From: a bacterium
Lineage (GTDB): Bacteria > Patescibacteriota > Minisyncoccia > Phycocordibacterales > UBA9973
Assembly: GCA_021824345.1 (NCBI GenBank)
Contig: JAKAKW010000010.1
Coordinates: forward strand, 1 to 48,986
Length of the DNA stretch: 48,986 nucleotides
Reading direction: 5' to 3'
The translations under genes and the position numbers were made by a program. Positions 6,038 to 43,342 of this stretch are shown here, piece after piece; position 1 is the stretch's first letter; every line of letters starts with the position of its first letter. The notes beneath the pieces were generated by a model, which saw only the letters and a program-made list of their open reading frames with translations, had not been told where the DNA came from and did no database searches.

Positions 6038-6200
6038 GCAAGCAGGAGCAAGCGTTTAGCCTTCTCGCTTTCCTCGCCGCCCCAGCGAGGCGGCTCAGGG
6101 GTCTCGCCCCCGCTCTCTCGTTCGCCTGCCGGCGAACTCGAACCGTGCCCGCTCGGGCTCGCAACCCGCTGCGAAGGCAAACGCTTGCTCCTGCTATTGC
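6038..6200. repeat. long GC-rich branched palindromic element
   Basis: 17-bp arms AGCAGGAGCAAGCGTTT (6041-6057)/AAACGCTTGCTCCTGCT (6179-6195) enclosing smaller hairpins. Confidence 0.85.
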
Positions 6201-6206
6201 CCTGTT

Positions 6207-6725
6207 TTAGTGCCGTCCGTTTCCCATTAAAAACTTTTTGGGGTTTTCGGAGAGATCCAGAAAGTCGTCCGCGGCTTCCTTGAGCTGCATGGAGGTGGAT
6301 TTGCCGAATGACGCCACTTCCACCAGCACTCCGGCGTAATTCTGCAGATATTCCACCAAAGGTATGAAATCCCCGTCCCCGGAGCAAATCACTACGGAGT
6401 CAAGCCGGCTGGCCATGCGCATTACATCCACGGTTAATCCTACGTCCCAGTCCGCCTTTTTCTCGCCGGAACGGAAAATCTGCAAGTTCTTCGTTTTAGT
6501 TTCAATTCCAATCTTGGTCAAAGCCTCAAAAAAATTCTTTTCGTCTCCGGCTTCAGTGGTTATCACATAGGCGATCGCCCGCACCAATTTCCGGCCGTTT
6601 ACCGCTTCCTTTAGTACCGCGCCAAAATTCACTCGCGCTTTATACAGATTGCGAGCGGAGTGGTACAAGTTTTGGGCGTCAATAAAAACGCCCACTCTCT
6701 GTTCTTTATGTTTTATTATTGCCAT
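6207..6725 (-). CDS. NYN (LabA/DUF88) PIN-like ribonuclease domain protein
   Basis: VFIDAQNL, KKADWDV, SGDGDFIPLVEYL, ADDFLDL. Confidence 0.92.
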   Translation of the reverse strand: MAIIKHKEQRVGVFIDAQNLYHSARNLYKARVNFGAVLKEAVNGRKLVRAIAYVITTEAGDEKNFFEALTKIGIETKTKNLQIFRSGEKKADWDVGLTVDVMRMASRLDSVVICSGDGDFIPLVEYLQNYAGVLVEVASFGKSTSMQLKEAADDFLDLSENPKKFLMGNGRH

Positions 6726-6742
6726 TTGGGAGCCCGGTTGAG

Positions 6743-7006
6743 TTACACCAGGTCTATTTTCTTTACCAGCGCATTATAGCGAGTTTTGTTTTTTCTCTCA
6801 AGATATTTGAGGTGCGCGCGCCGGTCCGCAACCATCTTGATCAATCCCCGGCGGGAGCTGTTATCTTTTTTGTGTTTCTTTAAGTGCTTGGCAAGTTCGT
6901 CAATCTGAGCTGAAAGTATTGCCACCTGCACTTCCGAAGAACCGGTGTCCTTCTCGTGGACCCGGCTTTTCTTGATAACAGTCTGTTTCTTTTTGGTATC
7001 TAACAT
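6743..7006 (-). CDS. rpsO: 30S ribosomal protein S15
   Basis: DTGSSEVQVAILS, HKKDNSSRRGLIKMV; start at MLDTKKK. Confidence 0.97.
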   Translation of the reverse strand: MLDTKKKQTVIKKSRVHEKDTGSSEVQVAILSAQIDELAKHLKKHKKDNSSRRGLIKMVADRRAHLKYLERKNKTRYNALVKKIDLV

Positions 7007-7081
7007 GCGTTTATCGTAGCATATATAAGGATAAATTGCAAATATATTGTGCGACATTAATGAAATGGTAGAATATAAAGC

Positions 7082-8035
7082 ATGGCGGAGGACATAGAAG
7101 AAGAAAACACAAAAAAGCCGAAAACCGACATTGAAAAAAAGAAAAGGGAATTTTTGGAGTATTTGGAACTGGAAAAAGGGTCCAGTTTGAAGACGATTGA
7201 GAATTATGACCGTTATCTTTCCCGCTTTTTTGATTTTGCGGGCATAAAAAAAGCCGGCGATATCAGCGATGAAAATATCCGCGAGTTTCGACTGTATCTA
7301 AACAGGCAGAAAGGAAACAAAGTGCGCGGCCAAACGGAAGCCACCATGAAAAAAAACACTCAGAATTATTATCTGATCGCTTTGCGCGTATTTCTGAAAT
7401 ATTTGATGAAGCGGGACACTCCCGCCCTCTCCCCTGATCGCATAGAGTTGGCAAAAATCAAAGAGAGGGGCTTGGATTTGATTTCCCCGGAGGAGCTTTC
7501 CCGTCTATTGGACAGTCCGGAAGGAAAAGAATTGGGAGACATGCGCGATAAGGCGATTCTTGAGCTTTTCTTTTCCACCGGTTTGCGCGTTTCGGAACTT
7601 GCTTCACTCAACCGGGATTTGGATTTGTCCAAAGACGAGTTCTCCGTCCGGGGAAAGGGAGAAAAAGTGCGAGTGGTTTTTTTATCAGACAGCGCAAAGC
7701 GCGCCATAAAGGAATATTTGGCAAAACGCAAAGATATGGAAGAAGCCATGTTTGTAAATTTGCCGAAACAAGAGAAGGCTCCCGTTTCGCGCTTGACCAC
7801 GCGTTCAATTCAGAGGATCGTGAAACATTACGCAACCAAGGCTGGAATATCAAAGAAGGTAACTCCCCATATCCTGCGCCATTCTTTTGCTACCGATCTT
7901 CTGCGAAACGGAGCCGATATCCGGAGCGTGCAGATGATGCTGGGGCACGCAAACATATCTACCACTCAGATATATACTCATGTAACGGATAAACAATTAT
8001 TGGAGGTTCACAAGAAGTTTCACAGCAGGAAGTAA
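7082..8035 (+). CDS. XerC/XerD-family tyrosine recombinase
   Basis: STGLRVSEL, GKGEKVR, HILRHSFATDLL, LGHANISTTQIY catalytic residues. Confidence 0.93.
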   Translation: MAEDIEEENTKKPKTDIEKKKREFLEYLELEKGSSLKTIENYDRYLSRFFDFAGIKKAGDISDENIREFRLYLNRQKGNKVRGQTEATMKKNTQNYYLIALRVFLKYLMKRDTPALSPDRIELAKIKERGLDLISPEELSRLLDSPEGKELGDMRDKAILELFFSTGLRVSELASLNRDLDLSKDEFSVRGKGEKVRVVFLSDSAKRAIKEYLAKRKDMEEAMFVNLPKQEKAPVSRLTTRSIQRIVKHYATKAGISKKVTPHILRHSFATDLLRNGADIRSVQMMLGHANISTTQIYTHVTDKQLLEVHKKFHSRK

Positions 8036-8157
8036 GCACAGAGGGCAAGATATGTTCTTCTTCGGGTACGGGATTTTTCTTGCTAGAAAAATCCCTGAAG
8101 TTCTCGCGCCGTCGCGCTCGAAACCCCCTGCGAAAAACATGTCTTGCCCTCTGTGCT
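8035..8157. repeat. long branched palindromic element between xer and xth
   Basis: 22-bp arms AGCACAGAGGGCAAGATATGTT/AACATGTCTTGCCCTCTGTGCT (one G-T), inner GGGATTTTTCT/AGAAAAATCCC. Confidence 0.85.
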
Positions 8158-8168
8158 ACAATTTACTT

Positions 8169-8963
8169 ATGCGAATAATTTCCTGGAACGTAAACGGCAT
8201 ACGGGCGGTGCATAAAAAAGGATTGTTTTTGCCGTTTGTAAAAAAATACAAGCCGGATATTCTTTGCCTGCAGGAAACCAAAGCGGAGCAGAATCAGAGC
8301 CCGATTGACTTGCCTGATTACGAAGAGTATTGGAACTCGGCCGAGCGCAAAGGATACAGCGGGACAGCCATCTTCACCCGCGTGAAACCTAAAAAAATCA
8401 TGCTCGGTTTGCCGGAGGGGATAGAGAAAAAATACGATCTGGCTGATGATTATGGAGATCCGAACAAGGAGGGCAGGGTAATCGCTGCAGAATATGAAAA
8501 ATTTTTTGTGGTTTCCGTTTATACGCCAAACGCCAAAGATGATCTTTCTCGCCTTCCTCTTCGCCATAAGCAATGGGATCCGGCCTTTCTCGAATATATG
8601 AGATCACTGGACAAGAAAAAACCGGTAATATTTTGCGGGGATTTGAATGTCGCCCATACTCCGGACGATCTTGCTCATCCTAAAGCAAATGAAGGGAAGA
8701 AAGGTTTCACGAAGGAAGAGCGCGAAGGAATTGACAGAATTATCTCGGCCGGTTTCACGGATACGTTTCGCCTGTTTACAAAAGGCAACGGACACTACAG
8801 CTGGTGGAGCCATTTCGCCAACTCCCGCGCCCGGAACGTCGGCTGGCGCATAGACTACATTTTTGCGAGCATACGTTTGTCAAAAAAAGTGAAACAGGCG
8901 AAAATTTTGCCGGAAGTAATGGGCTCCGACCATTGCCCGGTGATGATTGAGATTTCGGAATAA
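8169..8963 (+). CDS. xth: exodeoxyribonuclease III / AP endonuclease
   Basis: ISWNVNGIRA, LCLQETK, GDLNVAH, GWRIDY, GSDHCP; start moved to MRIIS. Confidence 0.96.
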   Translation: MRIISWNVNGIRAVHKKGLFLPFVKKYKPDILCLQETKAEQNQSPIDLPDYEEYWNSAERKGYSGTAIFTRVKPKKIMLGLPEGIEKKYDLADDYGDPNKEGRVIAAEYEKFFVVSVYTPNAKDDLSRLPLRHKQWDPAFLEYMRSLDKKKPVIFCGDLNVAHTPDDLAHPKANEGKKGFTKEEREGIDRIISAGFTDTFRLFTKGNGHYSWWSHFANSRARNVGWRIDYIFASIRLSKKVKQAKILPEVMGSDHCPVMIEISE

Positions 8964-8990
8964 AATGATAGAATAGCGAAGCGAAAGCAT

Positions 8991-9072
8991 GCCGCGGTGG
9001 TGAAATTGGTAGACACGTACGCTTCAGGTGCGTATGGAGCAATCCATGGGAGTTCGAGTCTCCCCCGCGGCA
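8991..9072 (+). tRNA. tRNA-Leu(CAG)
   Basis: GCCGCGG acceptor stem, anticodon loop TTCAGGT, long variable arm, GTTCGAGTC T-arm; CCA not encoded. Confidence 0.95.
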
Positions 9073-9078
9073 CAAGGT

Positions 9079-9558
9079 CTACCCGTTTATTTTTACATTC
9101 AGTGAAATATCGGATTTTTTCTCTAAGGATCCATCGGGTCTTTTTTCTGATATCTTGTATGTGTAGACACCCGGTTTCGTTGCCGCAAAGACGTTTAAGG
9201 TAATTATGATTCGCAATCTACTTTTCCCGGTTTCAAATTTTATCTGATTTTCACTTGGGATCAATACTTTGTTTTCGGAGTCAATTATTTCAATAACTAG
9301 GGTTGAAATAAATTCATCCTCTGTCTCAGAAATATTCCTCTCAAGTAAAACAACAAGCGAATGTTCGAAGGGAACTAAAATCTTGTCCTGGGAATGACCG
9401 GTTTCTTGCCCGGGTAGCGCAGAACTTTGGGTTTTATTGATGGAAACTTCCTCAAGAACATTAAATATGCTCAATTGATTAGTTTGTTGATCCACAGAAG
9501 CGTTTTTGCATATTATTGACCAGAGCGCTTTAAAATGATTTTTTGTTTTCTTGTCCAT
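9079..9558 (-). CDS. hypothetical beta-rich protein (DUF6941-like)
   Basis: [22 protein letters not shown]-terminus, PGVYTYKI; third gene of a low-GC operon. Confidence 0.6.
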
Positions 9559-9563
9559 AATAA

Positions 9564-9947
9564 TTATTTATGCGTTAAGACACTAAACCGGGAAGAGGAT
9601 GAATCAGACTTGCTAACTGTGCAATATGGTGAGAGCATTTCCCTATCGTTAATTATCTCCAATCTCTCAGTTCCTTCCCTATTTTCCATAAAACCGAATT
9701 TTGGAAAAAGAAAATCGGTTTTAATCGCTTTGGCAATCTTATAAAGAAATTCAATGCTTGCGATCATTTTTCCATTTTCTGCTCTTGCCACACTCGGCTG
9801 CTGAGTCCCAATTTTTTCAGCAAGCTCCGCTTGAGACAAACCTGAGTGAATTCTGGCAGCGGTAATAAGTCCTCCTACCTTTATAGCAATTATTTCCTTA
9901 TCAGATAAATTGACACTATTCTCTTTAAAGTATTTCTTGAAGTCCAT
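9564..9947 (-). CDS. XRE/HigA-like HTH antitoxin with C-terminal extension
   Basis: ARIHSGLSQAELAEKIGTQQPSVARAENG. Confidence 0.85.
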   Translation of the reverse strand: MDFKKYFKENSVNLSDKEIIAIKVGGLITAARIHSGLSQAELAEKIGTQQPSVARAENGKMIASIEFLYKIAKAIKTDFLFPKFGFMENREGTERLEIINDREMLSPYCTVSKSDSSSSRFSVLTHK

Positions 9948-10338
9948 TTTGGTTATTTAAATAATTAATAAATTCCGCTACTCGCCCCCGTGCCGCATCC
10001 CTATGCCTATTTTTTATGCATTGTTCCTTCTTTTTGAAAGCGTATAAAGCATAAAAAGTGTGAAATCCGTCTTCTCTGATTAAGCAACCTAAAAACCTTA
10101 TCTCATTTTTCCGGTAAAGATGAAATTTTAATTCCCACATATTCCTTTCACTCTTTACCTTCTCTAGATCACCTAGAGCTTGTACGCGGGTTATTGCCTC
10201 TTGGACATATTTTTTCATTTTTTCTTCTAATGAAGCGAAAAGAAATTTATCCTTCCTGTTCATTGTTTTCAATAAGTCTCTTTCTACCCGGCAAATTCTA
10301 TCTTCGGTAATCCAAAGGTCTATTGACCACTTTTCCAT
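9925..10338 (-). CDS. RelE/ParE superfamily (HigB/Gp49-like) toxin
   Basis: MWELKF...EIRFLG...LYAFKKKEQ; overlaps the downstream HTH gene. Confidence 0.75.
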   Translation of the reverse strand: MEKWSIDLWITEDRICRVERDLLKTMNRKDKFLFASLEEKMKKYVQEAITRVQALGDLEKVKSERNMWELKFHLYRKNEIRFLGCLIREDGFHTFYALYAFKKKEQCIKNRHRDAARGRVAEFINYLNNQNGLQEIL

Positions 10339-10418
10339 TTGATATTTTCGACCTTAATAATAACATATAAGGTATATATACCAAATCCGTTATATAAATG
10401 CAATATTGACTACAAAGT

Positions 10419-11222
10419 CTAGGTATGATGTAAAAAAATTCGAATAATCCGAGTTTTTTCCAAAAACCATTTGGCGGAAAGTTTTTTTACGTTGGCGGTG
10501 ATGTCGGTCACTAAAATTTTTGCGGTGCTCTTTTGGGAAAGCTTGCCGGATATTTGGGAGTGCAGACGAAGATATTCTTTCAATTTCCGCGGGACTATCT
10601 CGTCTTGGGAAATTATTTTCACTTTCTTGCCGGCGATCCGGCGTATTTGCGATTTAAAAAAAGGATAATGGGTGCATCCGAGCACTATCGCTTCCGGTTT
10701 TTTGGCAAGGAGCGGTTTCAAGTATTTGCCGATAAATTTTTCCGCCAGTTTTTTTTCTCCTTCCTCGGCCAAAGGCACCAGCATCGGAGCGGGGTTTTGA
10801 AAAACTTCCGCTTTTCGGTTTTTCTTCAAAATTTCTCTGGAAAAACTGCCGGAAGCCACGGTGCCGGCGGTGGCCAATACTCCGATCCGCGAGTATTTTG
10901 CCGCCTCTTCGGCGGCGGGAATGAGAACGCCCAAAATTTTCCGGCCTGGAAAATTTTGGGCCAGGTATTCCTTCTGCAATTTTCGCAATGCTCTGGCAGA
11001 AGCGGTATTGCAGGCCACGATTACGACGGCGCAATTTTCTTTCCGGAATAGATAGTCCACGCATTCTCGGGCAAATTCATATACCGCATCATGGGAACGG
11101 TTCCCGTATGGCACTCTTTTGGTATCGCCCAAATACGCGTAGTCATATTTAGGCATTTCCCGGCGTATGGCTTTGGCTATAATCAGTCCGCCCAGCCCCG
11201 AATCAAAAATTCCTATCTTCAT
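10419..11222 (-). CDS. murI: glutamate racemase
   Basis: IGIFDSGLGGL, VPYGNRS, VACNTAS, LGCTHYP. Confidence 0.97.
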   Translation of the reverse strand: MKIGIFDSGLGGLIIAKAIRREMPKYDYAYLGDTKRVPYGNRSHDAVYEFARECVDYLFRKENCAVVIVACNTASARALRKLQKEYLAQNFPGRKILGVLIPAAEEAAKYSRIGVLATAGTVASGSFSREILKKNRKAEVFQNPAPMLVPLAEEGEKKLAEKFIGKYLKPLLAKKPEAIVLGCTHYPFFKSQIRRIAGKKVKIISQDEIVPRKLKEYLRLHSQISGKLSQKSTAKILVTDITANVKKLSAKWFLEKTRIIRIFLHHT

Positions 11223-11400
11223 GAGTTTAATATTAGCACACCTTGCAAATCGCCTTATCGTTTTTATTAAAAAACTTGACATTATCTTTACACAGTTATA
11301 CTATTAATAGTGTAATTAATTTCTACCTGCCCGGCAGTTCAGATCGGATACTCACGCATAATGGGCCCTCCCGAGTCCAAATAAATCGGGACAAAGAGCT

Positions 11401-11709
11401 ATGCATAAACGTATCGAGTGCGGAATGGCCGGAAAATCAATAAGGTTTGATTATCTTTTATGGGTCAAAAAACTGGCTGACCGCTACGGCCTTTCCGGCA
11501 TCGCTTTCATTAAGGAAGACGGAAGCATAAAAGTGGTGGCGGAAGGAGAAGAAAAACCGCTTTATAAGTTTGCTTGCAAGCTTAACAAAGGGCACCTATG
11601 GCATGATATCGAGAATTTTTACATTGACTGGTCGGATGCCAGCGGAGAATTCCCGGATTTCCGGGTAGTGGAAGGAGAGGAAGCGGAAAAATTTGAAGAC
11701 ATGATGTAA
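11401..11709 (+). CDS. acylphosphatase-fold protein (catalytic motifs degenerate)
   Basis: GLSG...DGSIKVVAEG pattern, ~100 aa. Confidence 0.7.
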   Translation: MHKRIECGMAGKSIRFDYLLWVKKLADRYGLSGIAFIKEDGSIKVVAEGEEKPLYKFACKLNKGHLWHDIENFYIDWSDASGEFPDFRVVEGEEAEKFEDMM

Positions 11710-11740
11710 AAAGGGAAACACTGGAGTTTCCTTTTTTTAT
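11708..11740 (+). terminator. intrinsic terminator candidate
   Basis: AAAAGGGAAAC-ACTGGA-GTTTCCTTTTTTT. Confidence 0.55.
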
Positions 11741-11756
11741 TTCCTAAAATATAACT

Positions 11757-13433
11757 GTGCAAAAAACCTGCCAAAACTGCGGAAAAAATTTTGAAATCCC
11801 GAAAAAGGATCAGGACTTTTACGAACGGGTAAGCTCCCCCGCCCCGAATTACTGCCCCGATTGCCGAATGCAGAGGCGCCTATCTTTCCGCAACGAGCGC
11901 ACCTTGTACAAAAGGCCTTGCAGTATGTGCAAAAAATCGATTGTTTCCCTGTATCCTGAGAACACAGAGTTTCCGGTATACTGCCACGACTGCTGGTGGA
12001 GCGACAAATGGGACGGCCGGGATTCCGCCTTGGACTATGACTCGTCCAAGCCGTTTTTTGATCAATTCGCGGAACTCATTAAAAAAGTGCCTCGCCTGGC
12101 CCTGAATGTGATCACTAGCACAAACAGCGAATACACCAACAATTCCGGAGACAACAAGAACTGCTATTTGATTTTCGCAGCTGAACAAAACGAAGATTGC
12201 ATGTACGGCCGGCTTATACAGCATTGCAAAGGTTCCGTAGACTGCGCTTTCCTATATGATTCCGAATTGTGCTACGAGTGTCTGGACTGCCGGGGACTTT
12301 ACAATTCCATGTACTGCGAACGATGCCAGTCCAGCACGGATCTATGCTTCTGTTTTGACATGCGAGACTCCAACAACTGCCTTTTCTGCTCGGGCGGACG
12401 GCATATGGCCAATTCCGTCTTTAACAAAAAAGTTTCCAAGGAGGAATTTCTGGAAAAGAAAAGGGAAATCTTTTCTTCACATGAGAAGCTTGAAGAAGCG
12501 AAGAAAAAGTTCAAAGAGCTGAAAGGCAAGTCTTTGGTAAAATACGCTTATGCCACAAAGTGCAATGACGCTACCGGCGATTACATGTTTAACTGCCATG
12601 AGGCAAGACGGCTATTTGACGCTTCAAATGCAAAGGCATGCGCGTATTTGGCGGACGCTGAAGATCCTATAGATACTTATGACGGGAATAATATATATTA
12701 CAAACCGGAACTCTGCTATGACTTAATGGGCATATTGCAATGTTACAGCGTTAAACATTCTTCCTACGTTTTTTACTGCAATAATATTGAATATTGCGAC
12801 AGCTCCTACAACCTCGCGAACTGTTTCGGTTGCAACGGACTGAAAAAGGGAGAATATATGATTCTAAACAAACAATACGGAAAGGAAGAATATGAAAAAA
12901 TAAAATCAGAAATAGTGGAAAGCATGAAAAAGGAAAAAACATATGGAGATTTCTTCCCTCCCCGCTTAAGCCCGTTCGGTTACAATGAAACCTTGGCCAA
13001 AGAATACTTCCCGATGGAAGAAAAAGAAGCTGAAGAGAAAAAATTCAACTGGCAGAAGAACGCGACGGGTACCTACGGCAAGGAGACGATAAAAGAAATT
13101 CCGAAAACTATTGAAGAAGTGGGAGAAAATGCGCTGAAGGAAGTATTTGCCTGCGAAGAATGCAAGAAGAACTTCCGTCTGACAAAATCCGAGCTTGATT
13201 TCTACAAGCGCATGGGCATTCCCCTTCCGCACAAAGACTTTGAGTGCCGGCACCATGAACGGATGTCGGAGCGCAATCCCCGCAAGCTTTGGCATCGACA
13301 GTGCATGTGCGACAAAACCGGCCACCCGGGACACTCCGGCAGAAAATGCGGAAACGAATTTGAAACCAGCTACTCCCTCGACCGTCCGGAAACGGTCTAC
13401 TGTGAAGAATGCTATCAGCAAGAGGTATCGTAA
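11757..13433 (+). CDS. Cys-rich multi-zinc-ribbon protein (family common in CPR)
   Basis: CQNC, CPDC..RRLSFRNERTLYKR, CHDCWWSD, central Cys-rich short repeats, C-terminal CEEC and VYCEECY. Confidence 0.8.
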   Translation: MQKTCQNCGKNFEIPKKDQDFYERVSSPAPNYCPDCRMQRRLSFRNERTLYKRPCSMCKKSIVSLYPENTEFPVYCHDCWWSDKWDGRDSALDYDSSKPFFDQFAELIKKVPRLALNVITSTNSEYTNNSGDNKNCYLIFAAEQNEDCMYGRLIQHCKGSVDCAFLYDSELCYECLDCRGLYNSMYCERCQSSTDLCFCFDMRDSNNCLFCSGGRHMANSVFNKKVSKEEFLEKKREIFSSHEKLEEAKKKFKELKGKSLVKYAYATKCNDATGDYMFNCHEARRLFDASNAKACAYLADAEDPIDTYDGNNIYYKPELCYDLMGILQCYSVKHSSYVFYCNNIEYCDSSYNLANCFGCNGLKKGEYMILNKQYGKEEYEKIKSEIVESMKKEKTYGDFFPPRLSPFGYNETLAKEYFPMEEKEAEEKKFNWQKNATGTYGKETIKEIPKTIEEVGENALKEVFACEECKKNFRLTKSELDFYKRMGIPLPHKDFECRHHERMSERNPRKLWHRQCMCDKTGHPGHSGRKCGNEFETSYSLDRPETVYCEECYQQEVS

Positions 13434-13486
13434 GATTTATTAATTACACCACACAAATAATTTCCGACGTGGCAGGTCGAAATTTT

Positions 13487-14920
13487 CTATTTTCGTCCTT
13501 CGTTTAGGTTTTTAGCTTCTTCTACTTCGGAAAAAAGCGCCGAATCCACCCAGCCGAACCCGTTCCATCTGGAATATACTGAGTGGGCAACATAGTTGTA
13601 TTCCTGCCTAGCTTTTCCAGGTTTTCTCACCTTCACGACAGGAGAATTCTCGGTTTCAGTAAGATTATGAATTATTGTCCTTTCACTTTTCCCTGATAGT
13701 TTCGCAGCATCTTTCACAAATTCCAGAAAAACAGACTCCGGGCACGCACCGTCTAGCCTTGTGCGCGCAGTGACAAATTTGACTACATTATAAGTATAAT
13801 GGTCCATCTTTCCCGTCTCGTTTTTGTTGTCGGGCGCAACCAATTGAATTTCAAATTGTCTGGCGGACTGAGCCAAAGTTATGAATTTCCCATCTTTCTC
13901 CACGGGCTGAAGAATGCCTTTTATCAAAAGCGCCTCAAAGTCTCCCATAGAAGTGGGGTTTGAATCTCCCTCCTCCATCATAAATTCATTTTTTGAAAGA
14001 ACCTCTGATAGATATTCCCCAAGTTTCGCCTTTTGTTCTTCCGATAAGAATGATTTATTTTCAACCGTAATAAAACCGGCTTTCATGGAACCGGTAAGCC
14101 ACTTGGCAAGGATTGGCGCAAGTTCTACCGCCTTGTCTCTGTCTATTGTAATTCTGGAAGCAATACCATCTTTCAAGGCAGTGGCTGCGTTAGCTTCCAC
14201 TCTGGTAATATAACGAAGCATCGCCCTTTCCAAATCTTTTCCTCTTGAGGCGATTGATCCTCTCAGCCCGCCATGAGAAGCAGCGTAGAATTTTTTGCCC
14301 TCGGAATCCTCCTTGGTAAGCACAAGTGGAGTATCTTCCTTTTTGCGAACGACGGAAACAGGCGCTACCATGCTATTCTCAAACACCGCAGTAGCTTCCT
14401 TCAGAACTTCAGCATCATTTTTCAATGTTTCGTAGGCCACTATGGTCGCTTTTACCAAACGGCAGTATAGCAATGACCTGCTTAGCCCCTTCTGCCCGTT
14501 CACTAAAACAGTCTTTTTCATTAAATCAAAAATATCTTTCTTGGAAGTTATAGATGCAGGCCCTATATTAATTTCCTCGTCTTTATATTTAAGAGTATCT
14601 TTCAAAAAATTCTTGCCCTGTTGATATGCATAATCCAGTACTTTGTAAACATCTTTTGATTCCGGGGAATCTCCGTTTTTTAGAATCATTTCAGGATCAA
14701 TATCCAGCTCCCTGTTTATCCATTTCAAAAAATCTTCCTCAGCAGACCCTTCCCTCAGCCCCTGAAAATCAATTGCTGTCGGCCTTTTCTCCGGATCTAT
14801 ATCGTCAAACTGGCCCTTCAACAGGAAAAGCATCCAATCATACTTGCGCAAGGTGACTTCCATACCCTGTTCCGGAGGCAATATTCTTTTTTCTGGAATC
14901 GCTTCAAGCTTCATGCTCAT
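13487..14920 (-). CDS. hypothetical protein with RelA/SpoT-like nucleotidyltransferase motifs
   Basis: SRGKDLERAMLRY, KDGIASRI, FEIQLV in the order of synthetase motifs. Confidence 0.5.
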   Translation of the reverse strand: MSMKLEAIPEKRILPPEQGMEVTLRKYDWMLFLLKGQFDDIDPEKRPTAIDFQGLREGSAEEDFLKWINRELDIDPEMILKNGDSPESKDVYKVLDYAYQQGKNFLKDTLKYKDEEINIGPASITSKKDIFDLMKKTVLVNGQKGLSRSLLYCRLVKATIVAYETLKNDAEVLKEATAVFENSMVAPVSVVRKKEDTPLVLTKEDSEGKKFYAASHGGLRGSIASRGKDLERAMLRYITRVEANAATALKDGIASRITIDRDKAVELAPILAKWLTGSMKAGFITVENKSFLSEEQKAKLGEYLSEVLSKNEFMMEEGDSNPTSMGDFEALLIKGILQPVEKDGKFITLAQSARQFEIQLVAPDNKNETGKMDHYTYNVVKFVTARTRLDGACPESVFLEFVKDAAKLSGKSERTIIHNLTETENSPVVKVRKPGKARQEYNYVAHSVYSRWNGFGWVDSALFSEVEEAKNLNEGRK

Positions 14921-14999
14921 ACATTATTCCACGCAATTTATATTACGCAACTGTCTCCCCTGTATGAAAGCTATCCTGTTTTTGTGCTAAAATCTCGGC

Positions 15000-15590
15000 A
15001 TGGCGGATTACAAAACATACCTCGGCATTCTGTCCGTAGCCCTTCAGCTCATAAGTTATTCAATATACTTCACCGGAATTTGGAAAGGCAGGACCAAGCC
15101 CCATGCTTTCACTTGGATGGTATGGGGATTTATCAGCGTCATCGCTTTTACGGCTATTATCTCCGCCGGCGGAGGTGCCGGAGCGTGGGTACTTGGAATA
15201 AACGCCTTGCTCTGCTTGACCATTTCAGCCATAGGGTTTAAGCAAAAGAGAGTTACCTACGACCTGTATGACTGGCTGGCTCTGATTGGAGGTCTGCTAG
15301 GCGTGTTTTTATGGTGGCAGACAAAGGACCCGCTTTACGCCGTGATATTGGTGGCTCTTTCAGACTCAACTTCCGCCATACCTACTTTCCGTAAAGCATA
15401 TCGCCTGCCGTTTGAAGAAAACGCCCTGGCCTTCTCTATAGGAATCGTCAATTACCCGATAGCAATTCTGGCTTTGAGAACTTTGAATATAACCACATGG
15501 CTCTACCCCGCCACTATCGTGCTCGTTGATGCCATTATCGTGGCAATAATATTCTTCCGCAGAAGGCAACTGGGCAAAAAACCAATGTAA
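15000..15590 (+). CDS. multi-pass membrane protein with internally repeated PQ-loop-like halves
   Basis: ~7 hydrophobic segments; YFTGIWKGRTKPH and IPTFRKAYRLP loops. Confidence 0.7.
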   Translation: MADYKTYLGILSVALQLISYSIYFTGIWKGRTKPHAFTWMVWGFISVIAFTAIISAGGGAGAWVLGINALLCLTISAIGFKQKRVTYDLYDWLALIGGLLGVFLWWQTKDPLYAVILVALSDSTSAIPTFRKAYRLPFEENALAFSIGIVNYPIAILALRTLNITTWLYPATIVLVDAIIVAIIFFRRRQLGKKPM

Positions 15591-15611
15591 AGTTATCCAC
15601 ACATCTTTAAC

Positions 15612-17105
15612 TTATTCTACGCCGTGCTTTTTGTGGAGCTGGGAGATTTCTTTTTCTTCCAGCTCTTCTTTTTTTTCTTTTCCTCTCTCCCCCATCGTTT
15701 CAAGCGCATCATCGGGAAGCATATCCAAGGATTTTACAAGGGCGGAAAGATGTTCAACAGTATTTTTACTAGGATCGTCCAGCACCTCCTCCAAGAGCGC
15801 GTGCAAGATCCAGCCCATGCGCGGACCCGGCTTAACGCCGAGTTCTTTCATCATGAAATTGCCGTCAATTTTTAATTGGCCGACGGAAATGGGATCGCGC
15901 AGAGCTTCCTCAATCATGGCGAAGTACTTGCGAAGACGGTAAGGGGTTTCCTTTTTCTTCATTCCTACCCTGTCTGCTTCCCGTACATTCATAAGCGTCC
16001 AAATATTTTCTTTTCCAACCTTGGTTATAATCCGACGAACGGCAGAAAGGGTAATTTTTTCCGTATCGGAGAAAAACATATGGTTTCGCACCAGTTTTTC
16101 CACCAGTTCAATGTCTTTTCGGGGGAATTTCAGACGTTCCATTATTTTCTTTGCCATTCTGGCGCCGATAACTTCGTGCCCATAGAAAGTATATTTCCCT
16201 TTTCCATTGCCTTTTGTACTATCAAACCGTCTGGACCTGGGTTTGCCAATATCGTGAAACAGGGCCGCCATTCTGATCTCAAAAGGTAGACCTTTGTCCG
16301 CGGAATGCTGGACGGCATGAAGCAAATGGTTCCACACGTCGTATATATGCTCCCCTAATTGTTCACAACCCACTCCCTCCTCAAGTTCCGGAATGATATT
16401 TTTCAGCAATCCGGACTTATGTAACATCGTTATCCCTACAGCAGGGAAAGGCGACATCATTATCTTTACAAACTCATCACGGATCCTTTCGGCTGATATT
16501 TTCTTTATTAAATCGGCGTTTTTAATAATACTTTCCATGGTTTCATGCGAAACAGTGAAGCCAAGCTGTACAGAAAAACGCACCGCTCGCAGCATTCTTA
16601 ACGCATCTTCCTTGAATCTTTCGTCCGGCTTCCCTACTGTCCTTATTGTCTTTTTCTCAATGTCCTTTATACCATCAAACATGTCCGTTAGATGTCCTTT
16701 TGAATCTAAAGCCAAAGCATTCATGGTAAAATCCCTGCGTCTCAAATCGTCCTCGAGTTTGTCGCTGAATTTGACTTCGTCCGGATGGCGAAAATCGCTG
16801 TATTTTGCTTCTATCCGATAAGGAGTGATTTCAATTTGCCGGAGAGTTTCATCTTTGACATTTTCATTTATTACAAGTACGGTGCCGAAGTCATTTTCGT
16901 ATACAGTTTTCTCAAACAGGGGCATTATTTCCTCCGGCTTTGCGTTGGTGGCAATATCCCAATCTTTAGGCTTATTTTCTAAGACCAAATCCCTAACACA
17001 TCCTCCGACCATGTATGCCTCAAAACCCGCTTTTTCAAGCTTATTTATTTCATTCAGCACCCCTTTGGGAACTTTCTTTATCAGATCTTTATATTCCTTT
17101 GGCAT
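15612..17105 (-). CDS. cca: CCA tRNA nucleotidyltransferase (class II, HD domain)
   Basis: VGGCVRD, DWDIAT, RRDFTMNA, EDALRMLRAVRF, FHDIGKP; real start MPKEY because the longer ORF overlaps a tRNA. Confidence 0.92.
   Translation of the reverse strand: MPKEYKDLIKKVPKGVLNEINKLEKAGFEAYMVGGCVRDLVLENKPKDWDIATNAKPEEIMPLFEKTVYENDFGTVLVINENVKDETLRQIEITPYRIEAKYSDFRHPDEVKFSDKLEDDLRRRDFTMNALALDSKGHLTDMFDGIKDIEKKTIRTVGKPDERFKEDALRMLRAVRFSVQLGFTVSHETMESIIKNADLIKKISAERIRDEFVKIMMSPFPAVGITMLHKSGLLKNIIPELEEGVGCEQLGEHIYDVWNHLLHAVQHSADKGLPFEIRMAALFHDIGKPRSRRFDSTKGNGKGKYTFYGHEVIGARMAKKIMERLKFPRKDIELVEKLVRNHMFFSDTEKITLSAVRRIITKVGKENIWTLMNVREADRVGMKKKETPYRLRKYFAMIEEALRDPISVGQLKIDGNFMMKELGVKPGPRMGWILHALLEEVLDDPSKNTVEHLSALVKSLDMLPDDALETMGERGKEKKEELEEKEISQLHKKHGVE
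16539..16554. promoter_or_regulatory. parS-like site within cca
   Basis: GGTTTCATGCGAAACA, 13/16 match to TGTTTCACGTGAAACA. Confidence 0.55.
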
Positions 17106-17116
17106 AATATCTTTTG

Positions 17117-17188
17117 TGCACCCGGAGGGATTCGAACCCCCACTAACGGTTCCGAAGACCGTTGTGATATCCATTTCACTACGGGTGC
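17117..17188 (-). tRNA. tRNA-Arg(TCG)
   Basis: GCACCCG/CGGGTGC acceptor, ACGGT-CTTCGGA-ACCGT anticodon arm, GGTTCGAATCC. Confidence 0.95.
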
Positions 17189-17297
17189 CTGTTAATTTGT
17201 AATGCAAATAGTATACACTTTTTGCGGGCAAGATTGCACTTCGAGATCGGATCAATTATAATATTCGCGGGAAAGTTTCTTGATTTGACATCCGTTT

Positions 17298-17626: not shown

Positions 17627-17653
17627 TTCATTAATTTACAAAATTTATAAAAT

Positions 17654-18169: not shown

Positions 18170-18173
18170 CATT

Positions 18174-20553: not shown

Positions 20554-22575
20554 ATGGACCATTTATCGGAATTAAACGACAGGCAGAAAGAGGCGGCGCT
20601 TCATACGAAGGGGCCGCTTTTAATCGTGGCTGGAGCGGGAGCGGGCAAGACCAAAACCATCACCCATCGCATAATTAACCTTATAAAACAGGGCATTCCG
20701 CCGGAAAAGATCCTGGCAGTGACTTTTACCAACAAGGCGGCAAGGGAAATGCGGGAAAGGATTTTATCCGAGATAGAAAAAAACGCGAAAGGACAAGACT
20801 CTTTCCCGTTTGTCAGCACCTTCCATGCGCTCGGCGTTTTCATCATAAAGGAAAATGCCCGCCTTCTGGGCCTTACCAGGCATTTCAGCATCCTGGATGA
20901 GGCAGATTCCACCGCTATGATCAAGGAATCTATCAAAGAAATAAATCTTGATCCGAAAGAATACGAACCGCGCCGAATAAAAGGTATCATCAGCCGAGAA
21001 AAAGGAAACTTTACCGACCTGGAAGAATATAAGGAGCGCCAAGACCATATGGCGAAGATCGCCGGCCGAGTATGGGAGCTTTACGAAGAAAAAAAGAAAA
21101 AAGAGAACGCCCTGGATTTTGACGATTTGCTCTTAAAGACGGTCAAACTTCTGAAGGAAAACAAAATTGTAAGAAAAAAATATCAGAACAAATGGGAATA
21201 CTTGCATATAGACGAATACCAGGACACGAACGAAGTGCAATATAGACTCTCGCTCCTCCTTGCGGAAGGACATGGAAACATCTGCGTAGTGGGAGACGCG
21301 GATCAAAATGTGTACAGCTGGCGGGGGGCAAACCTGAAAAATATTTTGCATTTTGAAAAAGATTATCCCGGCACAAAAGTGGTCTTGCTCGAACAAAACT
21401 ATCGTTCCACCCAAAATATCCTTGAAGCGGCCAATGTGGTTATCAAAAAAAACAAATTCCGGCCGGAGAAGAATCTTTTCACCAAAAATGAAGAAGGCGA
21501 TAGGATTTCCCTGTACGAAGCTCTGGATGAAACAGATGAAGCGGATTTTGTGGCAACGAAGATTTTGGAGATTTTAGACGGAGGAGGGATCAGTAAAATT
21601 TTCTCGGGTCCTCGGGTCGGCCGCACCTCGAAAATGCGAATCAGCGGCCTCAACCAGACCGCTCGAAAATTTTCTGATCTCCCCTCCGTCAATCTCTCCG
21701 AGGTTGCCGTCCTGTACCGCACCAATTTCCAGTCGCGCGCGCTGGAAGAAGCGATGCTCCGATACAATATTCAATACCAGGTGCTCGGGATAAAATTCTT
21801 TGAAAGAAGAGAGGTGAAGGATACTCTCGCTTACTTGCGGGCCGCTCTGAATCCGGACAGCCTTTCGGACATAAGGCGGATAATAAATTTTCCGAAAAGG
21901 GGAGTGGGCAAGGTTACTTTGGCCAAGCTTTTCGCGGGGGAAGAAAAATCATTACCGGCCGGCATGAGAGTAAAAATATCCATCTTTTACAAGGTTTTAG
22001 AGGAAATCGCGGAAAAAATCCGCACGGAAAAAGCAAGCGCCGCCATTAAATTTGCGGTAAAAAAATCCGGCATAGAAACAGAGCTATCCAGCGGCACAGA
22101 AGAAGATTCAGAGCGATTGGAAAACATAAAAGAGCTGGCTACGCTCGCTCTAAAATATGATCAAATGCCTCCCGGAGAGGGAATAGAAAAACTGCTGGAA
22201 GACGCTGCTTTAGCCGGCGAACAGGACAGCTTAAGCAATAAAAAAGAGAATGAAAACAAAAATGCCGTGAAGCTCATGACGGTACACGCCGCAAAAGGTT
22301 TGGAGTTTGAATACGTGTTTGTCGTCGGGTTGGAAGAAGGACTCTTCCCAAATGAACGCGAGGGTGAAGTAAAGTCAGCAGAAGACTCGGAAGAGGAGCG
22401 CCGCCTGTTTTATGTGGCGCTTACCCGCGCGAAGAAAAAACTTTTTTTGTCTTATGCCAATTACCGCACTATTTTCGGCTCTCGTTCCATCAACGCTCCG
22501 TCAGAATTCATATACGACATTCCGGGCGATCTTCTGGAACACGAAGGGGAGAAAATCAAAACAATCTATTTATGA
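20554..22575 (+). CDS. pcrA: UvrD/PcrA SF1 DNA helicase
   Basis: AGAGAGKT, TFTNKAAREM, DEYQDTN, QNYRS, MTVHAAKGLEF, EERRLFYVALTRA. Confidence 0.96.
   Translation: MDHLSELNDRQKEAALHTKGPLLIVAGAGAGKTKTITHRIINLIKQGIPPEKILAVTFTNKAAREMRERILSEIEKNAKGQDSFPFVSTFHALGVFIIKENARLLGLTRHFSILDEADSTAMIKESIKEINLDPKEYEPRRIKGIISREKGNFTDLEEYKERQDHMAKIAGRVWELYEEKKKKENALDFDDLLLKTVKLLKENKIVRKKYQNKWEYLHIDEYQDTNEVQYRLSLLLAEGHGNICVVGDADQNVYSWRGANLKNILHFEKDYPGTKVVLLEQNYRSTQNILEAANVVIKKNKFRPEKNLFTKNEEGDRISLYEALDETDEADFVATKILEILDGGGISKIFSGPRVGRTSKMRISGLNQTARKFSDLPSVNLSEVAVLYRTNFQSRALEEAMLRYNIQYQVLGIKFFERREVKDTLAYLRAALNPDSLSDIRRIINFPKRGVGKVTLAKLFAGEEKSLPAGMRVKISIFYKVLEEIAEKIRTEKASAAIKFAVKKSGIETELSSGTEEDSERLENIKELATLALKYDQMPPGEGIEKLLEDAALAGEQDSLSNKKENENKNAVKLMTVHAAKGLEFEYVFVVGLEEGLFPNEREGEVKSAEDSEEERRLFYVALTRAKKKLFLSYANYRTIFGSRSINAPSEFIYDIPGDLLEHEGEKIKTIYL
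21577..21690. repeat. in-frame 114-bp palindromic insertion in pcrA
   Basis: GACGGAGGAGGGATCAGTAAAATTTTC...GAAAATTTTCTGATCTCCCCTCCGTC. Confidence 0.85.
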
Positions 22576-40068: not shown

Positions 40069-41952
40069 ATGAAAAAGGCATTTAAAAAAATCTTCGCCTC
40101 CGCTATTTTGCTTCTTCTGGCCACCGGCATGCTTTTGCCGGCAAATTATGCGTTAGCGCAGGATGTATCGCATCCTCTCATAATATCTGCTGGAAAATCC
40201 GGTAATGATATATACGTAACGGCAAAAACTTACAATCTCGGAAATAAATCAATCGTTTTTTCAGCTATTCCATCTACTGGTGTTTCTTTCACTTCCGCAG
40301 ACGGAACAAACCAGCCGTTGTGGGGAAAATGTCAAACTGGAGATACCACTCCAAGCAATTATGTCACTTCTTGTTCCGTATATTTGAAGATCAACAACTC
40401 CGGTACATACAGCGTATCCGCTTCCACAAACTATAATGGCACATTGGATTCAAATACAATCAACGTAGCGATGGGCGCCGACGGCACTGTTACAATAAAT
40501 AATTGTTCCACAGGTGAAACGCCGGATAAAAACGGAGTCTGTGTCCCAGCCACCAGCAAAGGCGTGGCGCTATCTGCCGTGTTGCCAAACAAGGGAACCA
40601 CCCTTGCCCCTGGGCTGGGAGCGACCGTAACAGCCGCTCTTGTGTCAACAGACGGAGAAGCGAAAACTTTCAAATTTTTTACGAATGGAAACGGAACATT
40701 CCAACCTGCAACTTGCGATGTGCCAGCGGTTAAATCAGGACAATCCCAGTCTTGCTCTGTCGTATTCGGGTCAATGGATGAGGGAACATACATGCTTAAT
40801 GCCAATGTATATAAAAAAGGAGACCTCACCGCAAACGGAGCTCTTGGTTATCCTTCGCATGGAGTGGAAGTAACAGTAAAGAGCCCTTATGCAGTAAATA
40901 TAAATGGCTCAACCGCAAGCCCGGAAAGTTGCGCAAGAATGAGTCCGCCGAAAGCTTATGACAGCGCCACAAATCAGTGCGTGGCGACCACAAATATGAC
41001 TTACACCCCGCTGGTCGGCTTGCCCGGCATGCCGGCGGGACAGCCGTATGACACCAGCCAGAAATGTGCGTTCGGCGACTACTTCAATATTGTATTCAAG
41101 GCGATAATAGGCCTTTGCGCAGTATTGGCAATGGTTATGCTGGTGTATGGCGGTATAGAATATATGACCGGGGGAACTATTTCTGAAAAAGAGAACGGCA
41201 AAGGGACGATCACTAACGCCATCCTTGGCCTTCTTATTGTTCTTGGAAGTTACGCCCTGCTTAACACCTTAAATCCCCAGCTCTTGAATGTATGCTTACA
41301 GTTACAACAGCAGACCGTAGTAGTAACGCCCATTCAAGAATTTGAAATAACAGGAGCCCAAAGTTCTTCTTTCAATGCCGCGCCGATCAAAATAAACTTT
41401 GACAAAGACGCTTATCCTGCAGCAAAAGCCGCTTCATTAAAAACCGGAGTAAAAATATCTCTTATACTGGCAATATTCCAACAAGAAACAAACTACGGAA
41501 AAAACGTAGGCGGTTGCAGATATAATGATGTAGCGGCCCAAATGAAACCTACAGAGCAGACCATCTTCGAAAGAATTATGAAAGACATGGGAAAAAATCC
41601 AACTGACGTACCGGTATCTTGCGCCCTAAAATCAGGCGGGGGGTATGCAGGGCACGGAGGAGCAATGGGGCTTGCCCAGGCTCTACCTTCAACCTGGCAG
41701 CAGTATGAAACTGAAGCAAAATCAAATCTTGGAAAATCTGCTCTAGACCCGTGGAATCCGAATGATGCATTGATGTTTATTGGAGTATTTATGAAACATA
41801 ACGGTGGTCTTGAAAGTCCGTACAACGGCGCGTGTAAATACTTCGGGCAATGCAGTTTTGGCGGAGTAGATTACGCTTCACAGGTGGTAGGAAAAATGGC
41901 CAGCCTTGATCAACAAATTGCTGATGAAATCAAAAAAGGGCAAATTAATTAA
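40069..41952 (+). CDS. VirB2/TrbC-like pilin fused to a lytic transglycosylase, with N-terminal Ig-like domains
   Basis: LAMVMLVYGGIEYM...GKGTITNAILGLLIVLGSYALLNTLNP; AIFQQET, GGAMGLAQALPSTW, DPWNPNDA. Confidence 0.8.
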   Translation: MKKAFKKIFASAILLLLATGMLLPANYALAQDVSHPLIISAGKSGNDIYVTAKTYNLGNKSIVFSAIPSTGVSFTSADGTNQPLWGKCQTGDTTPSNYVTSCSVYLKINNSGTYSVSASTNYNGTLDSNTINVAMGADGTVTINNCSTGETPDKNGVCVPATSKGVALSAVLPNKGTTLAPGLGATVTAALVSTDGEAKTFKFFTNGNGTFQPATCDVPAVKSGQSQSCSVVFGSMDEGTYMLNANVYKKGDLTANGALGYPSHGVEVTVKSPYAVNINGSTASPESCARMSPPKAYDSATNQCVATTNMTYTPLVGLPGMPAGQPYDTSQKCAFGDYFNIVFKAIIGLCAVLAMVMLVYGGIEYMTGGTISEKENGKGTITNAILGLLIVLGSYALLNTLNPQLLNVCLQLQQQTVVVTPIQEFEITGAQSSSFNAAPIKINFDKDAYPAAKAASLKTGVKISLILAIFQQETNYGKNVGGCRYNDVAAQMKPTEQTIFERIMKDMGKNPTDVPVSCALKSGGGYAGHGGAMGLAQALPSTWQQYETEAKSNLGKSALDPWNPNDALMFIGVFMKHNGGLESPYNGACKYFGQCSFGGVDYASQVVGKMASLDQQIADEIKKGQIN

Positions 41953-41955
41953 TCC

Positions 41956-43224
41956 ATGAAAACCCGAAACATAATCTTATTGGTAATAGTGCTGGTGCTG
42001 GTCGCCGCGGGGGTGTGGGGATTTCTGCTTTCCCGCCGGCCGAGCGCGAGCCCTTCTTCTTCGGCCGGAGAAAATTTTGTTTCCACTCTTTGGCCGTTTG
42101 GTAATACGAGCCAGAACGCTCCTCAATCCGCGCAAACTCCTCCGGCAAACGTATCCGGATATCAGCCTCCGTCGGGAGGGCAAAACGCTCCGGCGGTAAG
42201 CTTGCGGCAAATATCCAGCATGCCGATTGCCGGCTATGGAGTTTTTATGAAACAGCGCTATGGAGCGGCCGGGACGGAAAATGCGCCATACGTGCGCTAC
42301 GCGGACAGAACAAACGGAAATATTTATCAGACTTTTGCCGATAATATACAAGAGCGCCAATTTTCTCAGACTGAAGTGCCGGGTTTGCATGAAGCTTTGT
42401 TCGGAGGGAGCGGGGAAGACGTAATAATGCGCTACCTGAAAAGCGATCAAGCAACCATAGAAACGTACGACGGAACCGTTCCGTCGGAAGTGTTGGGGGG
42501 AGATACTTCGGCGGCGAACAATCAGCTTACGGGAACCTTTCTGCCGGAAAATATTTCAGAAGTTTCCGTTTCTCCTGACTTTTCAAATATTTTTTATATA
42601 GTTCCTTCCGGTAATGGAGCTGCGGGGGTAACCGCAAGCATGTCGGGAGGTTCAAAAACTCAGATTTTTTCTTCATCCTTCACCGAATGGATGCCCCAAT
42701 GGCCGAACAAAAGAATGATAACGCTGACAACCAAGGCCTCCGGCACGGCAAACGGATATATGTATTCAATAGACCCGTTGACGAAGGATTTTGAAAAAAT
42801 TATTGGGGGAATAAGCGGACTGACCACCCTCACGAGTCCGAGCGGGAGGTTGGTGCTTTATGCGGACAATAATCTTTCCCTTAAAGTATACAATCGAGAT
42901 ACCGGACAGAGCGTATCCATGGGAGTCAATACTTTGCCTGAAAAATGCGTTTGGGGCGGCGCTAATGACGCAATTTACTGCGCTGTGCCGAAGTACGTGC
43001 AAAACGGTTTATACCCGGATGATTGGTACCAGGGAACCGTATCCTTTTCCGATTCAATTTGGAAGCTTGATCCATCAAACGGAAGCACAACCATGATAGC
43101 TGATCCGGGAACGGTGGCGGGGGTAGGGGATGTGGATGCTGTAAATTTAAAGCTTGATCAGAGCGAAAATTATCTTTTCTTCATGGACAAAAAAAGCTCG
43201 TATCTATACGAGCTGGCGCTATAA
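41956..43224 (+). CDS. membrane-anchored beta-propeller-like protein
   Basis: N-terminal TM; VSVSPD, LTSPSG, TLPEKCVW, PDDWYQG...FSDSIW. Confidence 0.7.
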   Translation: MKTRNIILLVIVLVLVAAGVWGFLLSRRPSASPSSSAGENFVSTLWPFGNTSQNAPQSAQTPPANVSGYQPPSGGQNAPAVSLRQISSMPIAGYGVFMKQRYGAAGTENAPYVRYADRTNGNIYQTFADNIQERQFSQTEVPGLHEALFGGSGEDVIMRYLKSDQATIETYDGTVPSEVLGGDTSAANNQLTGTFLPENISEVSVSPDFSNIFYIVPSGNGAAGVTASMSGGSKTQIFSSSFTEWMPQWPNKRMITLTTKASGTANGYMYSIDPLTKDFEKIIGGISGLTTLTSPSGRLVLYADNNLSLKVYNRDTGQSVSMGVNTLPEKCVWGGANDAIYCAVPKYVQNGLYPDDWYQGTVSFSDSIWKLDPSNGSTTMIADPGTVAGVGDVDAVNLKLDQSENYLFFMDKKSSYLYELAL

Positions 43225-43234
43225 ACATATATAA

Positions 43235-43342
43235 AGACCCCGGAACATTTCCGAGCGGGGTGTCTCGCAGGCCGGCGGGCCGAGAGGCAGCGCTGGGCCA
43301 GCAGGCCCAGACAGCGACCCCGCGAGGGAAGTTCCGGGGTCT
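43235..43342. repeat. branched palindromic element between convergent operons
   Basis: AGACCCCGGAAC/GTTCCGGGGTCT arms with inner hairpins. Confidence 0.85.

Follow-up and report, generated by a model that had tools for sequence, protein, structure and literature searches.

Repetitive extragenic palindromic (REP) sequences are short palindromes in which both the stem and a flanking tag are conserved. A second kind of palindromic repeat, the Rickettsia palindromic elements (RPEs), is presented in one account (PMC10969869) as repeats of ~100–150 bp that form several families in a reduced genome, that lie in many cases in frame in unrelated housekeeping genes, where they are read as a conserved peptide, and for which no transposase is known. 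Here, we compare these and other systems with four long branched hairpins, elements 1 to 4, in a 48,986-nucleotide stretch of a patescibacterial genome (contig JAKAKW010000010.1 of assembly GCA_021824345.1), here called the window. An initial annotation of this DNA had described the four hairpins as a single dispersed family with unrelated stems and a shared internal junction, and had proposed that they were unlike a recent miniature inverted-repeat transposable element (MITE) and represented either a REP-like substrate of an HUH-type transposase or a structured RNA class. With confidence a little better than even, we instead read them as four related families (A to D) of non-autonomous palindromic DNA elements, RPE- and MITE-like in character, in which the arms stay paired through compensatory or templated change and which are specific to Patescibacteria, chiefly Paceibacteria.

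The likeness to RPEs is seen in element 3, an insert of 114 nt (38 codons, stop-free in translation) in the gene of a UvrD helicase, and in the in-frame copies of family D, whose translation yields one common peptide across six gene families. The elements differ from RPEs in lineage and sequence, in having the apex as their most conserved part and an outer stem that is private to each copy, and in the reuse of the same protein loop by several families and in both orientations; we take the relation to be one of analogy rather than membership. With REP sequences, their paired hairpin forms (REPINs) and the REP-associated tyrosine transposases (RAYTs), the common ground is that hairpin-forming intergenic repeats are found after genes and that palindrome-flanked RAYT-like genes are common in the order to which the genome belongs. 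The elements described here, however, are 100–160 nt long, have a conserved branched apex, are often intragenic and reside in a genome without a RAYT. Template-switch (quasipalindrome) mutagenesis is described as homogenising the arms of inverted repeats and inverting the spacer between them, including in coding DNA (PMC8604942), and as creating and maintaining hairpins with perfect stems (PMC8794818). This matches the private paired arms and flipped cores that we observe, but it is a mutational process rather than an element, and it leaves the conserved cores and their spread unexplained. Finally, the elements differ from integron attC sites in being dispersed over 10 contigs and within genes, in a genome whose only tyrosine recombinase genes are two Xer-like ones, one of them just upstream of element 2.

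Families, architecture and spread

The source genome (833 kb in 16 contigs, completeness 99.97%, with the window as contig C13) contains 126 inverted repeats with arms of at least 14 nt. By blastn with the hairpin cores, we resolve nine copies of family A, seven of B, seven of C, five of D and two of a fifth type, E, and each of the families A to D has one member in the window (Table 1). The dispersal and the conserved structure noted in the initial annotation therefore stand, while its single family resolves into four different multi-copy ones. All four hairpins and the junction strings quoted for them are present where they had been placed, the pairing of element 4 reaching slightly further out. 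Elements 1 to 3 fold with −87.2 kcal/mol (z −5.87), −66.6 kcal/mol (z −11.03) and −57.7 kcal/mol (z −7.00), respectively, and element 4 with −67.8 kcal/mol on the minus strand (z −5.52; z −8.70 on the plus strand), and in each case 0 of 200 shuffles fold as well as the native sequence. For elements 2 to 4, the opposite strand is 5–10 kcal/mol more stable than the strand chosen originally.

Three layers can be distinguished in these elements. The innermost is a GC-rich branched apical core of ~65–110 nt, which is very strongly conserved and takes the form of four hairpins in element 1 (on a stem of ~20 bp), a three-way junction in element 2 (on a near-perfect stem of 22 bp) and a T-shaped pair of hairpins in element 4. 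Next comes a family-specific inner arm of ~8–16 nt, pyrimidine-rich on its 5′ side and purine-rich on its 3′ side, which carries mismatches of CTCG opposite CTCG. The outermost layer is an arm of 5–17 bp that is private to the copy. Stems described as unrelated are thus private only in this outer part, the inner 8–16 nt being conserved within each family. Families A and D are related through a common hairpin module with an identical loop, and a covariance model built from D alone matches the A copy of the window (8056–8133) over the full length of the model, at the weak level of 25 bits (E 1.2e-4), which indicates that the families share their architecture.

Most copies of family A sit just after genes, and 5/9 of its palindromes end at most 2 nt from the stop codon of the neighbouring gene. 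In the window, the first base of element 2 is also the final base of the tyrosine recombinase stop codon, and 11 nt separate the end of the element from an ExoIII-like gene. RNAalifold gave only a weak result on the first alignment of this family as a consequence of a register shift in that alignment, and a hammerhead-like reading of the three-way junction was ruled out by reading of the sequence and by the lack of an Rfam match. In one A copy (C10:144747–144884), the second inner hairpin bears a further perfect palindrome of 22 nt within its tip, which looks like hairpin growth from the apex.

Beyond this genome, the A core matches in 11/40 relatives (10/24 from the same genus and 1/16 from other families of the order); the A loci shown there each have their own long stem, with the exception of two without a clean closing stem, and their inner hairpin covaries. 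The exact D-core pattern occurs in at least 119 stretches of species-representative genomes, nearly all labelled as patescibacterial, and among the matches listed, the one from an alphaproteobacterium lacks the remainder of the core. A covariance model, R1, built from 44 D cores, finds D in 21/151 genomes of the order with 1–13 copies each, namely the same five copies in this genome and copies in 20/150 others; in the window, it delimits the core of element 4 to 43253–43328 (89.9 bits). Neither the D nor the A core pattern has an exact match in 2.9 million viral contigs. A scenario in which no further copies exist and the junction motif is no commoner than in shuffled sequence is contradicted by copies in this genome, in its relatives and across Patescibacteria. 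We found no published description for this lineage in the literature on palindromic or in-frame repeats or on RAYT/REPIN systems of Patescibacteria, a coverage that excludes subscription journals and supplements.

Across the 44 D cores, 96.9% of cells are paired, as compared to 81.2% in shuffles and 29–48% with slid partners, and double changes are seen in 160 cells against 41 in shuffles; two core blocks are necessarily invariant, as the cores were selected with them as the search pattern. Wobble pairs are few (9 in ~570 variable cells).

Reused protein loops and private stems

In this genome, 6/7 C copies, one B copy and one D copy lie inside long open reading frames (ORFs) in either orientation, which amounts to at least 8/30 copies. 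A remarkable site of this kind is that in the UvrD gene, in which an insert is found at the position of element 3 in 15 of 17 same-genus loci (after exclusion of a truncated locus and of a genome without a match). Three families are involved: the fillings are D in sense orientation (4), D in antisense orientation (4), C (4), a variant of A (2) and another type (1), and one of the C-filled loci also holds an A-variant copy in tandem. All eight D assignments are confirmed by the covariance model. The two unfilled loci consist of one with a short loop only and one that is empty, and in other families of the order, the site is a plain loop of 7–8 residues in 12/12 genomes. In one well-supported sister pair, D is present in opposite orientations with differing stems; this pair is the sole usable support in a tree of the UvrD flanks, in which 12/14 forks are unresolved.

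A wider sample of D shows the same concentration, with 44 of the 80 listed loci falling in five sites and both orientations occurring: 4 versus 7 at UvrD, 10 versus 4 at TGT and 8 versus 4 at TsaD, together with four copies in a class I tRNA synthetase and three in a formyltransferase. In-frame copies are hosted by these five proteins and by an HD protein, and a UvrB-like fragment is a further host by reading alone, with no Pfam match. Every in-frame copy whose translation was read uses one frame when D is sense and one frame when it is antisense. Each hot-spot group also retains its own inner-arm subtype. A short public contig (L105, 1–358) has a UvrD-like left flank, a TGT-like right flank and a D core at the joint, and is probably an assembly chimera formed at the repeat.

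These placements bear directly on the view that the elements are structured RNA motifs that serve the host in cis, for instance as 3′-end stabilisers, processing sites or terminators, through a functional three-way junction, which we consider quite improbable. Such a role would agree with the strong covariation of the core helices and with the location just after genes of three of the four window copies (elements 1, 2 and 4) and of most A copies, and the arm mismatches of family D, read on the CGAG-rich strand, are mostly wobble or purine–purine and would be tolerated by RNA helices. It is difficult to reconcile with the rarity of wobble pairs in the covarying core helices, with copies translated in frame and with the occurrence of both orientations at the same sites (four sense and four antisense D copies at UvrD in the genus, with TGT and TsaD likewise mixed). 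Intergenic copies also follow no clear rule relative to the neighbouring genes, with ~13 co-oriented and ~9 anti-oriented in a hand tally. In Rfam searches, only four tRNAs are recovered from the whole window at gathering thresholds, and none of the four elements has a match at E ≤ 1; a simple scan flags no element as an intrinsic terminator, including elements 1, 2 and 4, whose apices are branched cores of 70–120 nt, unlike the small loops of terminators. In their behaviour, the elements are DNA palindromes rather than RNA genes: both orientations are used, copies are translated in frame, the distribution is patchy, other families take their place at one site, and one genome has undergone a burst, as described below.

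We next consider the stems. Beyond the core, the two D arms of a locus pair over a median of 27.5 nt (score 18), as compared to ~7 nt (score 2.2) when arms of different loci are combined, in an analysis of 72/80 loci from which one non-homologue, four loci with short or masked flanks and three without a left half were dropped. Among orthologous copies, changes in both arms have left the bases paired in 605 cases and broken in 172, and 502 changes are one-sided; the 605 compare with ~126 roughly expected under independent change, although pairwise counts of this kind are not independent of each other. At the formyltransferase site, the arms of two close relatives whose flanks differ by ~18% are separated by exactly two compensating pairs, and all four changes are synonymous. 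By reading of the alignment, the outermost pairs at the TGT site use codons of a conserved host motif and change together with their partners, and at the UvrD site of one genome, the left host codons can be read a second time, in inverted form, ahead of the genuine host motif downstream. Terminator hairpins that existed before insertion were considered as the sole source of private stems and were ruled out, as copies within genes have private stems as well.

The mechanism that we favour for these stems would begin after insertion. The hairpin would promote intrastrand template switching, in which one arm is copied from the other, and this would keep the arms perfectly paired, extend the pairing into neighbouring DNA up to the point where sequence is constrained, and flip the core. 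Template switching as documented would thus account for both the private, perfectly paired outer stems and the flipped cores. It may be tolerated here because the genome appears to lack a hairpin nuclease of the SbcD type: SbcD has no match in this genome, while the control search was positive in 13/14 reference genomes, and the SbcC model gives only weak matches below the cut-off, to one ORF of 744 aa.

Long perfect stems are also found apart from families A to D. The window contains a unique hairpin with a short loop and a near-perfect stem at 19067–19116 (z −9.2), ~40 unique simple hairpins with short loops and near-perfect stems of 14–24 bp (most of at least 17 bp) occur elsewhere in the genome, and two small conserved apex hairpins recur there on private arms. 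Long perfect stems are thus a genome-wide habit that is independent of the A–D cores. One could suppose from these ~40 hairpins without a conserved core, and from the missing SbcD, that all of the elements are pure by-products of replication error, which would have arisen anew through template switching and contain nothing mobile or functional. We regard this as very unlikely, since it leaves near-identical cores across dozens of loci and genomes unexplained; for the cores, it is already contradicted, and it survives only as an origin of the outer stems.

Mobility and strand asymmetry

A sign of mobility comes from a genome of the same order, labelled as Nomurabacteria, which holds ~13 D copies, ~10 of them with a whole 29-bp arm in common. 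Direct repeats of 9–11 bp surround 4–5 of the seven D copies read, and there is no extra outer pairing; solo arms away from cores were not found in this genome. A burst with common arms and direct repeats implies that the whole hairpin can move as a unit, and private outer stems are best read as later growth or fast compensatory drift. This D family behaves like a MITE burst, contrary to the initial statement that the hairpins are unlike a recent MITE. The elements in general resemble MITEs in being small, non-coding and multi-copy with inverted-repeat arms. They differ in that the arms in the present genome are common over only 8–16 nt, that D loci from other genomes show no direct repeats at their outer arm ends, and that a parent insertion sequence or DDE transposase was not found. 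We propose that the elements would spread as DNA through a trans-acting enzyme. With this enzyme presumably absent from the present genome, the copies here are probably residents rather than active.

Enzymes of the Y1 type are plentiful in the order. Y1_Tnp genes occur in 90/151 genomes and reach a number of 13 in a single genome, which is a remarkable load at genome sizes of 0.5–1.2 Mb. Three IS200-like Y1 genes, encoding transposases of 247–260 aa, are found in the burst genome (L204, 1940–2754; L205, 2507–3368; L206, 2590–3260). The genes on L204 and L205 are each flanked by their own palindrome of 29–39 nt, which differs between the genes and has a further copy between the flanking ones; on L204, this intervening copy is inside the Y1 reading frame. 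Near the gene on L206, there is one palindrome and one wider inverted repeat. The arrangement on these three contigs is RAYT/REP-like. None of the three genes is flanked by D, however: the adjacent small palindromes are unrelated to the A–D cores, and the D copies lie elsewhere on the Y1-bearing contigs or on other contigs.

The junction itself is a CTCG facing a CTCG within the stem, which forms a tandem pyrimidine mismatch and reads on the opposite strand as CGAG facing CGAG. The shared motif of the initial annotation is borne out: the four elements contain 16 CTCG, as compared to 6.8 ± 2.2 (maximum 13) in 300 dinucleotide-preserving shuffles, and the 30 elements of the genome contain 88, as compared to 41.2 ± 5.5 (maximum 61) in shuffles of the same kind. 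When the 30 elements are oriented, CTCG is their most strand-asymmetric tetramer (88 CTCG versus 19 CGAG), whereas the whole genome has 2103 and 2150, respectively. The arm mismatches of family D are likewise biased, with 70 A·C versus 22 G·T and 68 pyrimidine–pyrimidine versus 13 purine–purine, and the bias has the same direction in families A (44 versus 6), C (12 versus 0) and B (4 versus 1). Common descent accounts for many of these mismatches, which makes the counts non-independent, and agreement between families is partly by construction, as the CTCG motif was used to orient the families relative to one another. Within each family, the strand asymmetry of mismatches is real. It hints that the structure is recognised on one folded strand, and reading of one strand would leave room for a single-stranded DNA intermediate and hence for an HUH-type enzyme.

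These observations are the basis for an alternative that we judge unlikely, namely that the elements are REP/REPIN-like and are mobilised as single-stranded hairpins by a RAYT-like Y1 HUH enzyme, with the core and junction mismatches as the one-strand recognition structure and the transposase lost from the present genome. In its favour, strand-asymmetric junction and arm mismatches are expected for a one-strand structure, Y1_Tnp genes are widespread in the order, and the relative that holds the only burst of near-identical D copies is also the one in which two of three Y1 genes are clearly flanked by a repeated palindrome of their own, with one palindrome near the third. Against it, Y1_Tnp is missing from a genome of 99.97% completeness, and the frequency of Y1 genes among D carriers (12/20) is no higher than the background (90/151). 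The D copies do not adjoin the Y1 genes, around which the palindromes are unrelated to the cores, and many copies are intragenic. The burst copies moreover carry flanking direct repeats of 9–11 bp, and IS200/IS605-type transposition is not known to make such repeats. The idea of a REP-like HUH substrate, and that of a Y1/RAYT gene flanked by the junction motif, are therefore not supported as first stated.

A bolder form of the DNA-element reading would place the origin of the stem in the act of transposition. In this scheme, which may be termed 'cap-and-copy', only the apical cap with a few adjoining base pairs would be the heritable mobile unit, and the closing stem would be rebuilt from local DNA at each site by strand-specific fold-back (snap-back) synthesis primed by the cap. 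It would jointly explain private perfect stems on near-identical cores, strand-asymmetric mismatches and the reuse of protein loops, and if true, it would represent transposition that duplicates the target in inverted rather than direct form. We think it improbable, if slightly less so than mobilisation by a Y1 enzyme.

A further alternative is that the elements are immobile host-level DNA sites under purifying selection, such as cruciform or hairpin binding sites for a protein involved in chromosome structure, replication or uptake. The extreme conservation of the core over the whole class at orthologous sites, the independence of orientation and the separate inner-arm subtype of each hot-spot group, which suggests vertical descent, are all in keeping with such a role. 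Conversely, the distribution is patchy (21/151 genomes of the order, 0–13 copies), a single site is occupied by different families in sister species, a burst with target duplications is seen in one genome, and no candidate binding protein was identified; on balance, we find this explanation rather doubtful, on a level with that of structured RNAs.

Several observations count against our preferred reading of mobile palindromic families with templated arms. With respect to mobility, direct repeats at the outer arm ends of the 72 D loci from other genomes are at the level of controls (two loci reach score 8, as compared to 1.4% of controls). No enzyme is at hand: Y1_Tnp (PF01797) has 0 matches and 0 candidates in this genome, with the control positive in six reference genomes, RVT_1 has zero matches in it, and DDE_Tnp_1 (PF01609) and rve (PF00665) are absent from five genomes including this one and the burst genome, in a search that did not extend to further transposase families. 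With respect to conservation, the core is ~95% identical between genomes whose proteins differ by ~30%, which is more than a decaying selfish resident should retain and would need gene conversion, rapid turnover or a host-level function; the near-invariance of the core over the whole class is unexplained by this reading. With respect to the stems, strand-asymmetric mismatches are not expected from template switching that acts symmetrically on duplex DNA. Two D copies in this genome have cores that are 98.7% identical and share genome-specific variants, yet their outer arms of 12–17 bp are unrelated, for which core-limited gene conversion or arms made at insertion are equally good explanations as later growth. 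Finally, the comparison of filled and empty sites envisaged at the outset is available at UvrD, which is filled in 15/17 loci of the genus and empty in 12/12 genomes from other families of the order, but no filled/empty pair was found in close strains, which leaves insertion and arm copying without a direct view. A search for the empty site of one burst copy in five other Nomurabacteria-labelled genomes matched the core and not the flanks. What remains of the initial interpretation is a set of dispersed, structure-conserved hairpins with copy-specific outer stems and a shared junction, whereas its HUH, RNA and un-MITE-like components are not supported as stated.

Genomic setting and significance

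The coordinates of the elements and of two associated genes are collected in Table 1. The recombinase gene is included as context only.

Table 1. Hairpin elements and associated genes in the window
Feature	Position	Strand	Description
Element 1	6038..6200	. (CTCG-rich strand +)	Family B; between NYN-domain gene and PNPase gene
Element 2	8035..8157	. (CTCG-rich strand +)	Family A
Element 3	21577..21690	.	Family C; in frame inside UvrD helicase gene
Element 4	43229..43348 (43235–43342 in the initial annotation)	. (CTCG-rich strand −)	Family D; between convergent genes
UvrD/PcrA-type helicase gene, host of element 3	20554..22575	+	Pfam UvrD-helicase 2.1e-87, UvrD_C 7.9e-65
Xer-like tyrosine recombinase gene, just upstream of element 2	7082..8035	+	Pfam Phage_integrase 6.8e-45

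The stretch is present in four public DNA runs, all from one study, and no RNA run is listed among the public runs that contain it. In contigs from these runs, breaks fall within the cores of elements 1 and 2, and element 3 is spanned; over 5500–22500, they show no joint that skips an element, which is uninformative with respect to empty sites. Elsewhere in the window, a 14-bp inverted repeat surrounds 106 nt at 29558–29691 within an ORF of 1287 aa (28052–31915), and with its weak fold (z −3.0) and lack of related copies, it is probably due to chance. The region at 16000–18300 may be a replication origin: the cumulative GC skew has its minimum near 16–17 kb, the genes change there from mostly minus to mostly plus strand, and the kilobase at 17–18 kb has the lowest GC content (0.368, equal to that at 47–48 kb) and four tRNA genes. 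On another contig (C10:66690–66975), a tRNA-Arg gene precedes an 11-bp hairpin in which the 3′ end of the tRNA itself forms the left arm; next come a structured insert of ~100 nt and then a 47-bp direct repeat of the tRNA end and hairpin.

Genomes of Patescibacteria are among the smallest and most streamlined, and yet this one carries at least 30 elements, which make up ~3.9 kb and of which some are translated within a DNA-repair helicase, while across the group, the same loops of TsaD, TGT, a class I tRNA synthetase, a formyltransferase and UvrD are occupied repeatedly. The elements also cause assembly breaks and chimeric contigs in metagenome bins. If our reading is correct, selfish DNA in protein-coding genes would have a second case that is independent and far more widespread, and the elements would be a source of innovation in protein loops. 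They may also offer a natural setting in which to test how hairpins drive templated mutation in cells without the SbcCD nuclease.

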